The notes under the pieces: model-generated
What the model was told of the DNA's origin: nothing
The model's database searches: none
The model's input: the letters and a program-made list of their open reading frames with translations, nothing else
Assembly (NCBI GenBank): GCA_026400755.1
Contig: JAPLOM010000008.1
Coordinates: 12,806 to 76,805, forward strand
Direction of reading: 5' to 3'
From: Alphaproteobacteria bacterium
GTDB taxonomy: Bacteria > Pseudomonadota > Alphaproteobacteria > CADEGL01
Length of the DNA stretch: 64,000 bases
Part shown: positions 21,421 through 24,334 of the stretch, piece after piece
Position numbering within the stretch: position 1 is the first letter of the stretch
Layout of the letters: each line of letters starts with the position of its first letter
Made by a program: the position numbers and the translations under genes

Positions 21421-21823
21421 GTGAGCGGCCGCGCGGGCGACGCGCCCGTCCCCAGACGCTTGCCCTGCCGAAATCCCAAAGTCCCGCGCAAGTCCCTCTT
21501 GGCGGCCGTGATTATGGCCCGCGACCCTGCTTAGTCAACGACCGAGGCTTGAAATGCGCGCATCTTCACACCAGATATTGCGCATGATGTTCGCGTCCAA
21601 ACACAGCCGCACCTTGCGCTCGGGCCGCCTGCACGCAGGCACGATAGCCCCGGAACCGGACGCCTAACATTTCGCGCCCCGGTTCAACCCGGGGCTTTCA
21701 CCCAAGCCGCAATCCACAAAACGGCCACTTCGAGAGAAGCGGCCGCATGACCACGCCGCGTTCTCCGTTGTCGGAGCGCGCGGTGGGGACGGCGCCCTTC
21801 GGCGCACAAAGGAGAAGAAGACC

Positions 21824-22252
21824 ATGGAACAGCAGATCGAAACCGCACCCGCCGCCCCGCCCATCGCCGTCACGCGAGAGGACCATGACCGCTTGGCCGA
21901 TCTGGCCGCGGCCGCGTCCAACCGCCTGCACGAGGTCGCCGACCATCTGTCGGCCGAGCTGGCGCGCGCGCGGATCGTCGAGAAGGCGGCGCCGACGCTG
22001 GTCACCATGGGCGCGCATGTCTCGTTCCGCGACGAGGACAGCGGCGAGGTGCGCGACGTCACCCTGGTCTATCCCAAGGATCAGGATCTGGCACAGGGCA
22101 GCCTGTCGGTCCTGACGCCAGTCGGCACGGCTCTGCTCGGCCTCACCGCGGGTCAGTCCATCCCCTGGAGGACTCGCGACGGGCGTTGGAAGACGCTGAC
22201 CGTGGTCAATGCCGCCCATCCGGCGGCAGCGTCCACGGGAGCGGAGGCCTGA
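21824..22252 (+). CDS. rnk: nucleoside diphosphate kinase regulator (GreA/GreB C-terminal domain family)
   Basis: 142 aa. The VTMGAHVSFRDEDSGEVRDVTLVYP...LSVLTPVGTALLGLTAGQSIPW segment parallels E. coli Rnk almost position for position. Confidence 0.82.
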   Translation: MEQQIETAPAAPPIAVTREDHDRLADLAAAASNRLHEVADHLSAELARARIVEKAAPTLVTMGAHVSFRDEDSGEVRDVTLVYPKDQDLAQGSLSVLTPVGTALLGLTAGQSIPWRTRDGRWKTLTVVNAAHPAAASTGAEA

Positions 22253-22257
22253 GCGCT

Positions 22258-22292
22258 CCCCGCCCGCCCGATCCCCTGACGGGCGGGCGGGG
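22258..22292 (+). terminator. 13-bp perfect GC hairpin immediately after the rnk stop (U-tract-less terminator-like)
   Basis: ccccgcccgcccg-atcccctga-cgggcgggcgggg, starting 6 nt after the TGA. Confidence 0.6.
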
Positions 22293-23461
22293 ATTGCCGT
22301 CCGTGGTGCATCGGTGAACGCGAATCGCCAGCGGTGGTGAATGCGGCACGCGCTGTGAATCGTTCGGTGGATAACGTGTGCGTCGATTGTTGGCACCGTC
22401 TCTTTCATGCACAAGAAAATCGCGCGAAGAGCAGGTATTCGCCTTGAGCGCTTCAACAAAAGCAAAATACCGTGAAGTCGGTACGCGAAAGTGTCGGAGC
22501 AAGCATCTTTCGCCGAATCGCGGCACAGGCCTTCGGGTCCGCCGCGCGCCGACGGAAGACGCAAGCCCGGGAACCGCTCTCCGCGTTCACGCGCGAAGGA
22601 CGGTTCGGAGGATGGTCCGCACGCCGCAAGGCTGCGGGGCGTTCGCCGGGTGGTCCGGTTCCGATGCGATCTGGGTTCTGTTGCCGGGACCGCGGCGGGT
22701 TTCTTCGGAAACTCCCGCATGGCCGGCGGCGCGGTGGGCTCCGTCCGTGGAGCACGCCGAAGGAACCCGGCGGTTGGTCTTCCTCGTGAAGCACCACCGC
22801 TTGGTTCGGATCTCGCGATCCGGCACGGTGCCCTTCGGGGCCTGTCCGTGCGCGATGTCGGCCGGCTTGCCGGCGCGGACATCGAACGGATCGCCACCCG
22901 CCATCCCTCACAGGATGCGGATGCCGGGTTCCGGACACGGGGCGCGGACTCGGGTTCGCCTTTCGGGGCGCATCCGGTTTCGGCGGCGACCCTCCTCCGC
23001 GGGATTCGCCACCGGGCCCCGGCGCATGGTGTGAGGTCGATCGGGCGTTCGACCCGGTGAATCGAGTCCGTGAGCCTGGCGCTTCCTTGTGAAGCGGCGG
23101 GCAAGGCCAAGCGGTCCTGCTCGGGGGAAGCGCGGCCCGGTCTCGAGAGTCGGCGAACCCTTGCGGGACGCGCCGATGGTTTCACCGGGATTGGGATTGC
23201 GTCGGGGGTCGGGCCGGTTGGAGAGGCACGGGGCCGGTGGCGCTGTTCTTTCGCAGAGCGCGCGCCACGCGGGACGTCCGTCGAAGCTGCCTCACCGCTG
23301 TCGCGGCCCGGAGCCTTCACCGGCTCCAGAGGCGTCGGGAACGTGCCCTTGGGCACTTGCGCTGGCTTCGCGGCTGGGCGCACCCGACGCCTCTTGCTTT
23401 ATCACAAGCGATTCCCGGTCGCAACCAACTCTTGTGGTTTGACCCTCTGCGGCAACGATAT
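22293..23461 (+). other. ORF-free, hairpin-dense 1.17 kb region; candidate structured ncRNA locus (strand assignment tentative)
   Basis: No six-frame ORF has protein-like composition. Plus strand shows G>C and T>>A skew. Many perfect stems and C(UUCG)G-like loops. Lies between the 3' ends of two convergent genes. Confidence 0.4.
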
Positions 23462-24334
23462 CTAGGTGTTTTCCAGCGCTCGGATCGCGGCCGCCAACGC
23501 AACCAAACGTTCGGCCTCCACGACATGCAGGTTCTCGATCAGCCTGCCGTCCACCACCACCACGCCCTGCCCCTTGCGGGCCGCCTGGGCGTGGGCAGCG
23601 ATGATCTTCTCGGCGAAGGCGATCTCTTCCGCGCGCGGCGCGAAGGCTTCGTTGGCGGCGGCGATGGTCTTGGGATGGATCAGCGTCTTGCCGTCGAAGC
23701 CCAGCTCGGCGCCCTGCCGGCAGGCGGCGGCGAAACCCTCGGCGTCGTCGAGATCGAGATGGACGCCGTCGAGGATGGCGAGCCCGTGGGCACGCGCCGC
23801 GAGGACGCACAACTCCAAGCTCACGATCAGCGGCAAACGACCCGGCACATGCCGGGCGTGCAGATCCTTGGCAAGATCGGAGGTGCCCATGACGAAACCG
23901 GCCAAGCGCGCGTGGGCAGCGGCGATCTCGGCCGCGCGCAGGACGCCGCGCGGCGTTTCGATCATGCACCAGAGGCGAAGCGACTCCGGCGCGCCATTCC
24001 GCGTCAGCAGATCGGCCGCCTCGCGCACCGTCGCCGCGCTTTCGACCTTGGGCAGCAGCACCGCATCGGCGCGGCGGCGCGCGATGGCGGCGACATCGTC
24101 GCGGCCCCATGGGGTCTCGAGGCCATTCACGCGCACGATCAGCTCGCGCGAACCGTATCCGCCCGCCGTCAACGCCTCCGTCACCTGGTGTCGCGCGGCT
24201 TCCTTCGCATCGGGCGCCACGGCGTCTTCCAGATCGAGGATCAGCATGTCGGCCGGCAAGCCGCGCGCCTTTTCCAGCGCGCGGGCGTTGGAGCCCGGCA
24301 TGTAAAGGGCGCTGCGGCGCGGTCGAACGTCCAT
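23462..24334 (-). CDS. CitE-like CoA-ester lyase (HpcH/HpaI aldolase family; citrate lyase beta / malyl-CoA lyase-thioesterase-like)
   Basis: 290 aa. MLILDLEDAV N-terminal motif and the metal-binding E/D pattern of CitE-family proteins. Confidence 0.8.
   Translation of the reverse strand: MDVRPRRSALYMPGSNARALEKARGLPADMLILDLEDAVAPDAKEAARHQVTEALTAGGYGSRELIVRVNGLETPWGRDDVAAIARRRADAVLLPKVESAATVREAADLLTRNGAPESLRLWCMIETPRGVLRAAEIAAAHARLAGFVMGTSDLAKDLHARHVPGRLPLIVSLELCVLAARAHGLAILDGVHLDLDDAEGFAAACRQGAELGFDGKTLIHPKTIAAANEAFAPRAEEIAFAEKIIAAHAQAARKGQGVVVVDGRLIENLHVVEAERLVALAAAIRALENT

Follow-up and report, generated by a model that had tools for sequence, protein, structure and literature searches.

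A 64-kb stretch of alphaproteobacterial DNA (contig JAPLOM010000008.1; "the window" below means this whole stretch) contains, between the convergent genes rnk and citE-like, a spacer most of which an initial annotation, made by reading the letters alone, had proposed as a large structured non-coding RNA (ncRNA). The comparative data presented here uphold a large structured ncRNA and revise its length, which is probably about 990 nt (from about 22415 to about 23403) and not 1170 nt. Specifically, the spacer is probably the gene for a stand-alone RNA read from the plus strand, starting near 22415 and ending at a predicted branched intrinsic terminator at 23328-23403. The locus is laid out as follows.

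21824-22252, plus strand: rnk, with the Pfam domains Rnk_N and GreA_GreB
22253-23461 (1209 nt): spacer between rnk (plus) and the citE-like gene (minus)
22257-22293, plus strand: rnk 3' hairpin, a 14-bp perfect G+C stem with a 9-nt loop, then UUGCC (inverted repeat I1)
22352-22413: conserved upstream block, candidate promoter or regulator-binding DNA, near-invariant in nine homologues
22415-23403, plus strand: predicted RNA of about 990 nt, its 5' end placed by inference and its 3' end set at the terminator
23404-23436, plus strand: conserved tail past the terminator with a hairpin at 23420-23424/23432-23436, conserved in nine homologues
23462-24334, minus strand: HpcH/HpaI citrate-lyase-beta-like (citE-like) gene, convergent with rnk

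A conserved non-coding spacer

As the initial annotation had pointed out, both flanking genes end at the spacer, and because both neighbours point into it, the RNA would not be a cis-regulatory leader. The amplitude of GC content by codon phase is mostly 0.00-0.14 in the spacer, with a local maximum of 0.26 at 22720-22930, and 0.4-0.5 in rnk and the citE-like gene. By this kind of crude measure, the longest non-periodic stretch in the window runs from about 22081 to 23520 and all others reach at most 510 nt, which gives rough support to the earlier remark that spacers elsewhere are short. The patch of lower GC content that had been seen at 22321-22500 is real, at 53.9% GC.

Homologues were gathered by looking up identical proteins, by scanning genome contigs once and through the homologues of both flanking proteins. 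This yielded nine full-length copies of the spacer, all from uncultured alphaproteobacterial assemblies and all sharing one gene order: sdhCDAB (reverse), rnk (forward), spacer, citE-like (reverse), pdxK-like and lysE. The copies are 82-93% identical to the spacer of the window, or 99.9-100% where they come from the same organism, and the spacer is kept in every syntenic relative found (9 genomes). Alignment of 4.5 kb with three relatives gives identities of 91.5-93.0% for the spacer, 88.6-92.7% for rnk and 83.5-89.1% for citE; synteny thereby bears out the suggestion that the spacer between rnk and citE might be conserved, and places its conservation above that of the flanking genes. This conservation is even along the whole length of the spacer, and 23300-23399 forms a block that is 100% invariant in the four genomes.

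The pattern of change in the same alignment is not that of a protein-coding sequence. Variable columns are distributed over the three codon phases as 54/53/58 in the spacer, 19/13/41 in rnk and 145/25/44 in citE, the spacer indels are only 1-2 nt long and break the frame, and no stop-free frame is common to the genomes across the spacer alignment. The flat codon phase, the substitutions without a period of three and the short indels agree with the earlier statement that no frame here is protein-like, and no relative carries a conserved open reading frame (ORF) in the orthologous spacer, where an intact one had been named as contrary evidence. Additionally, tblastn searches of the spacer with the neighbour proteins of an outgroup locus gave nothing significant, the best match (E = 0.015) being to an artefact ORF. 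A 22-codon ORF from an invariant ATG at 22407 was rejected, as frame-shifting indels alter it in loci L005 and L016. The spacer is non-coding and under stronger purifying selection than its neighbour genes.

Public gene calls nevertheless put ORFs of 105-310 codons over the RNA region, mostly on the opposite strand, in loci L001, L012, L015, L016, L017, L018 and L027; no Pfam domain was found in the ORFs called over the region. They are likely annotation artefacts of GC-rich non-coding sequence.

A plus-strand fold under selection

The consensus fold was computed with RNAalifold on the nine sequences (alignment A2, interval 22340-23450). On the plus strand it comprises 380 pairs at -519.6 kcal/mol, compared with -406.0 kcal/mol for the reverse complement, which is the level of shuffled controls. 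Specifically, 60 column-shuffled alignments in which gap and conservation classes were kept fold to -410.5±11.0, placing the native value at z = -9.9. Standard pairs occupy 98.0% of the pair cells in the nine-sequence alignment. Double changes are seen in 27 pairs, against 13.1±2.3 in within-pair shuffles (0 of 500 reach the native count) and 2-10 when partners are slid by 1-3 columns, which also lets the paired cells fall to 36-44%; by a second count, the native alignment has 35 double-change pairs and the column shuffles 11.2±3.4. Compensatory substitutions, suggested at the outset as something to look for, are thereby present in excess of both shuffled and slid controls.

The same alignment also speaks to the strand. 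The pair cells contain 422 G·U and 21 A·C combinations, and Watson-Crick and G·U pairs alternate in 108 pairs; because G·U so far exceeds A·C and the minus strand stays at shuffle level, the signal reflects neither DNA palindromes nor an RNA of the opposite strand. The initial annotation had read the RNA from left to right on the strength of base composition, and this direction is supported by the consensus energies and the G·U excess. The base counts it gave are exact (22621-22680: G25 C17 T13 A5; 22921-22980: G24 C18 T13 A5), and over the entire spacer the plus strand has G/C = 1.12 and T/A = 1.28. Folding of the single sequence was less telling: it beats dinucleotide shuffles on the plus strand (z = -4.2), as had been anticipated, and does so on the minus strand as well (z = -4.7), so that it does not discriminate between strands. 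The single-sequence z-score was rejected as an uninformative strand test (both strands at about -4 to -5), and since both strands fold well singly, the case for the strand and for the reality of the fold rests on the comparative data. Selection preserves base-pairing on the plus strand.

The long-range helices comprise 66 pairs that are 99.0% paired. Double changes occur in 6 of these pairs, compared with 2.2±1.2 in shuffles (1 of 500) and 0-4 when slid, and a further 25 vary on one side yet stay paired. At least 22646-23221 is one fold, because its long-range helices are 99.0% paired and include 6 covarying pairs. The parts of the predicted RNA, all on the plus strand, are these.

22422-22645, plus strand: 5' domain of the consensus fold, local helices 4-12
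22452-22468, plus strand: A-rich linker in the 5' domain
22483-22494, plus strand: GAAA-capped hairpin in the 5' domain
22495-22569, plus strand: UUCG-capped arm in the 5' domain
22571-22606, plus strand: arm in the 5' domain
22610-22644, plus strand: GCAA-capped arm in the 5' domain
22646-23221, plus strand: central domain of about 575 nt, closed by 22646-22672 with 23194-23221
22769-22800 with 23022-23049, plus strand: nested long-range helix in the central domain
22804-22810 with 22930-22936, plus strand: nested long-range helix in the central domain
22895-22923, plus strand: dispensable hairpin (helix 27), strongly covarying and missing from L012 and L015
22985-23010, plus strand: hairpin with the 8-nt loop UCCUCCGC (22993-23000), the loop invariant in nine homologues
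23050-23061 with 23181-23193, plus strand: nested long-range helix in the central domain
23223-23327, plus strand: 3' domain, helices 37-40 and the hairpin GGAGCC-UUCACC-GGCUCC (23310-23327)
23328-23403, plus strand: predicted branched terminator, a 12-bp stem AGAGGCGUCGGG/CCCGACGCCUCU enclosing two small hairpins
23395-23403, plus strand: U-rich tail UGCUUUAUC after the terminator stem

Individual helices illustrate how the pairing is kept. In the 5' domain, helix 4 has double changes in 4 of its 9 pairs, and in helices 10 and 11 a total of 12 pairs vary on one side only with pairing kept. Helix 27 has double changes in 4 of 12 pairs (ATCC/GGAT becoming GCCC/GGGC). YUCG loops cap five hairpins and GNRA loops two (one GAAA, one GCAA); among the nine homologues, the YUCG loops vary only within the UNCG class, as UUCG, CUCG or UACG. 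Most of the helices picked out by eye in the initial annotation reappear: 23328-23339 and 23383-23394 are a perfect 12-bp inverted repeat, gcggc and gccgc flank a UUCG loop at 22520-22545, and cccttcgggg lies at 22831-22840. The ggagcc/ggctcc and cggatc-tcgc-gatccg hairpins also exist, each 1-2 nt away from where they had been placed, at 23310-23327 and 22807-22822. The cacaag...cttgtg hairpin proposed for the 3' edge is not supported, as an A-U pair becomes A·C in three of the nine homologues.

The invariant UCCUCCGC loop resembles an anti-Shine-Dalgarno sequence, and a functional role for it is only a lead. A brief comparison of the loop with the ribosome-binding site of sdhC (GGGAGAG) gave no convincing match. 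In L012, the stem at 22985-23010 has three mismatches that, read by eye, can be re-paired by a register shift. C-rich runs resembling CCUCC are also present in the outgroup RNAs described below.

Predicted ends of the RNA and putative relatives

The upstream block, candidate regulatory DNA in front of the RNA, contains three recognizable elements.

22354-22362: TGTGAATCG
22366-22398: three direct repeats in 11-bp phase, (G/T)GTGGATAACG, TGTGCGTCGAT and TGTTGGCACCG
22403-22408: TTTCAT, resembling a -10 element

Across the nine homologues, the near-invariant stretch spans 22352-22421, and the helices with compensatory changes start directly after it, at 22422 (helix 4). By conservation and by analogy, the RNA would start near 22415, and transcription would proceed from a promoter of its own just downstream of the conserved regulatory block. 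The first of the direct repeats is similar to a DnaA box; it reads TGTGGATAA in most relatives and GGTGGATAA, with 1 mismatch, in the window. An 11-bp spacing of direct repeats is typical of sites for the OmpR/PhoB family, and from its sequence the array looks like a putative binding array for a response regulator or DnaA. A sigma-54 promoter, TGGCAC-N5-CTTTCA at 22391, was rejected; three relatives have TCGCAC, and the -12 GC is absent.

At the other end, a terminator-like scan match lies at 23376-23392, and the 12-bp G+C-rich stem closes a three-way junction. The RNA would end at this branched intrinsic terminator. In the tail beyond it, the hairpin at 23420-23424/23432-23436 fits the changes among homologues, with the change from G-U to G-C at 23421/23435 keeping the pair; the stretch 23404-23436 may serve as a partner for 22352-22369, or else be the 3' end of citE or a tail from transcriptional read-through.

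Putative relatives of the RNA are found outside the clade of nine. The clade itself is sharply bounded: within it, the Rnk and CitE proteins are each at least 79% identical, and all others are at most 59% (rnk family) or at most 74% (citE family) identical. A citE outgroup, L018, has the order citE, mch (mesaconyl-CoA hydratase, 1053 nt), a 1.4-kb stretch and sdhCD, and no rnk; over the 1.4-kb stretch a 303-codon ORF without a Pfam domain has been called. Read on the strand divergent from sdhC, this stretch contains a phased TGTG/TGTGGATAA array, an AT-rich patch of about 120 nt, about 690 nt of GC-rich sequence as an RNA-like body, and a 3' module of GGAGC...GCUCC plus GGAGGCGUCGGGA...UCCCGACGCCUCC, then U7. 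With an nhmmer profile built from the clade, the L018 3' module is found at E = 0.004. Its relative L027 has the same layout, with TGTGAATAA in place of the TGTGGATAA of the phased array, a stem in which U-A has become U·G, so that it pairs only on this strand, and the tail UUUUAUC after the stem. L026 has only a short terminator-bearing element of about 110 nt.

Two metagenome scans extended the search. The first, with an invariant 22-mer, gave 0 matches; the second, with a pattern of the terminator stem, gave six loci, of which L021, L023 and L025 are relevant and L020, L022 and L024 look unrelated. L021 and L023 have sdhC divergently upstream (by Pfam in L021 and by the protein's N-terminal residues in L023), and L025 has the same RNA and 3' module on a contig that ends before the upstream region and any sdhC. 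The three RNAs are about 520-590 nt long, their 3' hairpin covaries (GGAACC/GGUUCC), and the genes downstream are unrelated to one another and to citE. The L023/L025 pair, 79% identical, folds to -234, compared with -197±7 for shuffles and -203 for the minus strand.

L018, L027, L021 and L023 thereby share an arrangement in which no rnk lies beside sdhC and a GC-rich, ORF-free stretch lies divergently upstream of it. The outgroup stretches close with the hairpin known from the window and the stem GAGGCGUCGGG...CCCGACGCCUC, after which comes a run of U7-U8 (UUUUAUC in L027). Across the lineages, the hairpin corresponding to 23310-23327 covaries as GGAGCC/GGCUCC, GGAACC/GGUUCC and GGAGCC/GGUUCC with G·U. 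The upstream block is common to L018, L023 and L027, with TGTGGATAA inside the phased TGTG array of L023 as in that of L018, and L021 has only a degenerate repeat. The RNA bodies could not be aligned between lineages with MAFFT, short-word blastn, nhmmer or a covariance model, and what can be recognized in more than one lineage is limited to the upstream block and the 3' module. Position, upstream block and 3' module, rather than the body, thereby support a wider family of candidate RNAs encoded upstream of sdhC. L018 and L027 were found independently of the stem pattern.

The outgroup loci hold two further points of interest. Between the RNA terminator and the next gene, L018 (6938-7290, minus strand), L027 and L026 have a further block of conserved non-coding sequence, about 330 nt long, with the shared motifs GTTTTGAGTCGACTTTT and CTTCGGGGATGCGCCGG and a final hairpin GGGAGGCGCC-GGCAAAC-GGCGCCTCCC; it is absent from the window and could be another RNA. 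Directly upstream of citE-mch, and close to the RNA locus, the same three loci carry phoU and a phoB-like response regulator gene (L018 218-1623, L026 3508-4895, L027 262-1667).

Weighing the explanations

In the proposed model, the RNA would adopt a three-part fold, consisting of a 5' domain of local hairpins, a central domain of about 575 nt closed by long-range helices and a 3' domain that ends in the hairpin and the terminator stem, with many arms predicted to be capped by stable UNCG and GNRA tetraloops. Several observations weigh against a single stand-alone RNA with these ends and this history. All nine homologues are close kin (82-100%) and represent few independent substitution events, many core helices never vary and are hence uninformative, and the structure was derived from the same alignment that was used for the pair counts. 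A consensus scan of the spacer found no sigma-70 promoter, the U tract is degenerate in the clade (UGCUUUAUC), and conservation runs 33 nt past the terminator, to 23436. Furthermore, RNAalifold predicts a weakly supported helix between 22352-22369 and 23403-23419, 92% paired and with 2 double changes, that would imply a longer transcript and conflicts with the proposed ends. With regard to the wider family, a covariance model of the core 22936-23036 scores E = 0.34 at the expected place in L018, which is within noise, and L021, L023 and L025 were picked by a pattern that fixes the terminator stem, which is partly circular.

Among the alternatives, the most durable is that the RNA is a long 3' untranslated region (UTR) of rnk that arises when transcription reads through the rnk hairpin and is perhaps set free by processing. 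The shared orientation, the position directly downstream of rnk, the UUGCC in place of a U tract after the hairpin and the lack of a canonical promoter in the spacer would all fit such a UTR. It is nonetheless quite improbable, as the outgroups carry an RNA-like element with the same 3' module beside sdhC and without rnk, which would make the RNA independent of rnk; the structured part is, moreover, preceded by a conserved block like the one upstream of the outgroup RNAs. The connection to rnk is also the spacer's least conserved part (22294-22351, the 58 nt after the hairpin), and about 40 nt beyond the hairpin L012 carries an insertion of 16 nt. The rnk 3' hairpin is the upstream boundary and lies outside the RNA. 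In the alignment, its stem is rebuilt with different bases in L012, and it is therefore selected as a structure. The region's best Rfam match, a spurious one, falls on this same hairpin.

It is highly unlikely that the region instead encodes several separate small RNAs with their terminator hairpins. Most helices are indeed local, the 5' domain has no supported long-range pairing, and the shorter outgroup versions (about 520-690 nt; possibly about 110 nt in L026) indicate that parts are dispensable. What such a division does not accommodate are helices spanning up to 575 nt, 99% paired, in which 6 pairs covary and 25 change on one side while pairing holds, nor the even conservation over the full length; the internal terminator-like sites at 22677-22699 and 22755-22772 are weak-tailed and lie inside covarying helices.

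There is very little probability that the spacer acts as DNA, be it as an origin of replication, as clustered palindromes bound by proteins or as repeats of the repetitive extragenic palindrome (REP) or miniature inverted-repeat transposable element (MITE) type. Against the many inverted repeats of the region stands the strand specificity of the pair conservation (G·U far above A·C, the minus strand at shuffle level). The DnaA-box-like site in the phased repeats at 22366-22398 and the AT-rich stretch of about 120 nt at the corresponding place in L018 recall an origin, yet the window has 3 DnaA-box matches where 2.7 are expected, and no GC-skew switch. A chromosomal origin (oriC) was rejected, with one 1-mismatch DnaA box in the spacer, no AT-rich element (window minimum 54% GC) and no cumulative-skew switch. 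A mobile or repeat element was likewise rejected: apart from direct repeats at chance level, the spacer is free of tandem or dispersed repeats, it occurs only once in the window, and plasmid and phage collections gave no match.

A decayed pseudogene or neutral spacer, such as an mch remnant, is scarcely credible even though L018 has an mch of similar length between its citE homologue and the region upstream of sdhC, as tblastn with the L018 Mch protein reaches only E = 0.79 against the spacer, the spacer is more conserved than the adjacent functional genes, composition and substitutions have no codon-phase signal, and the substitutions are compensatory. An outgroup protein called "X" beside Mch was also rejected, being an artefact ORF opposite an RNA-like region with a negative tblastn result.

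The stand-alone ncRNA, which these comparisons leave as the probable reading, belongs to no catalogued family. The 4227 models of Rfam 15 include RNase P, transfer-messenger RNA (tmRNA), 6S, signal recognition particle (SRP) RNA, riboswitches and group I and II introns, as well as OLE, GOLLD, ROOL, HEARO, raiA and alphaproteobacterial small RNAs. At the gathering score, none of them matches anywhere in the window, and up to E = 10 the region 22150-23600 gives only noise, the best being 21.8 bits (E 0.064) for the CRISPR repeat model CRISPR-DR9 on the rnk hairpin. Eight homologous or outgroup loci gave only two unrelated tRNAs, and permissive Rfam searches of the outgroup RNAs gave nothing relevant (10 related loci searched in all). 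The initial annotation had recognized no known RNA family by eye, and the Rfam searches likewise return none. ARAGORN finds 0 tRNA or tmRNA genes in the window. A group II intron was rejected, as no intron family appears in permissive Rfam searches, the region is intergenic between complete genes, and on inspection the hairpin at 23310-23327, of 6 bp, lacks the length of a domain V. Literature searches found no RNA upstream of sdhC and no description of a matching large RNA.

In kind, rather than by homology, the region has the features of a large structured bacterial ncRNA: it is non-coding, longer than 200 nt and conserved in multiple genomes, and its multi-helix structure covaries above controls. 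OLE, GOLLD and ROOL are RNAs of this kind too, unrelated to the one here. OLE (RF01071), which works within an RNA-protein complex (PMC9723947), is likewise a large (about 600 nt), multi-domain, stand-alone bacterial ncRNA that was found by conservation and covariation and whose function was long unknown. It does not match in sequence or structure, however, and is found in Firmicutes beside partner protein genes, whereas the RNA described here is about 990 nt long, alphaproteobacterial, located between rnk (or sdhC) and unrelated genes, and without an evident partner gene. GOLLD and ROOL (RF01998, RF03087), which form RNA-only multimeric assemblies (PMC12286853), are similarly very large (about 600-800 nt) and ornate, with many covarying helices and unknown function. 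They give no Rfam match here and often occur in prophages or near tRNA genes, whereas the present RNA keeps a fixed chromosomal position with no phage or plasmid match and no tRNA nearby. The raiA motif RNA, for which a phenotype but not a biochemical mechanism is known (PMC10861870), is another large structured ncRNA defined by comparative analysis, but it is about 200 nt long, widespread in Firmicutes and Actinobacteria, and without a match here. Finally, the cuckoo, CcsR and alpha-r14 RNAs share a C/U-rich, anti-Shine-Dalgarno-like motif in a hairpin loop (here UCCUCCGC, in the cuckoo RNAs CCUCCUCCC; PMC4615179) and, as is predicted for the RNA here, are stand-alone alphaproteobacterial genes that end in an intrinsic terminator. 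In cuckoo RNAs, which are small, the hairpins form an array and each repeats the motif, whereas the RNA here has one such loop in about 990 non-repetitive nt, and membership in the cuckoo/CcsR family was rejected, with a single loop, no repeated units and no Rfam match.

By analogy with other large bacterial RNAs, the most likely role would be that of a folded scaffold or partner acting in trans on protein or RNA. Its interaction surfaces would most plausibly be invariant unpaired segments such as the UCCUCCGC loop, together with the cross-lineage 3' module. The RNA may be the enlarged representative of a broader group whose members are encoded upstream of the succinate dehydrogenase operon and in divergent orientation to it. 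The persistent place of the RNA beside the control region of sdhCDAB suggests that it is connected with respiratory or central metabolism, and may only reflect a shared regulatory region. A bolder and rather unlikely extension is that the RNA is one machine of about 1 kb (a ribozyme, a self-assembling particle or the core of a ribonucleoprotein), grown from a smaller sdh-upstream RNA by lineage-specific expansion and linking carbon or respiratory metabolism to RNA activity; an integrated machine of that size would, if real, exceed GOLLD (about 800 nt).

Beyond the ribosome, RNase P, tmRNA and self-splicing introns, bacteria have few known classes of large folded RNA, such as OLE, GOLLD, ROOL, HEARO and raiA, and the ones studied so far have proved to have unexpected roles, from membrane RNA-protein complexes and nuclease guide RNAs to RNA-only cages. 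To our knowledge, no RNA class of such size has been described in this phylum. The RNA of about 990 nt would add an unusually large class, with strong covariation and with conservation above that of the neighbouring genes. Its apparent link to the region upstream of sdhCDAB and the size range of its putative relatives, from about 110 to about 1000 nt, offer entry points into its function and evolution. In practical terms, gene callers now place spurious ORFs of 100-310 codons over the RNA in public assemblies.

Two minor observations concern the flanks of the locus. The best promoter-like site of the region, TTGACT-16-CATAAT, lies upstream of sdhC at 21511-21538 on the minus strand, and its -35 element (AAGTCAA on the plus strand) is also kept beside sdhC in outgroup loci. 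Across the citE stop codon, at 23451-23464, CAACGATATCTAG is kept in eight of the nine homologues (L012 being the exception), and the 15 nt that precede it vary.

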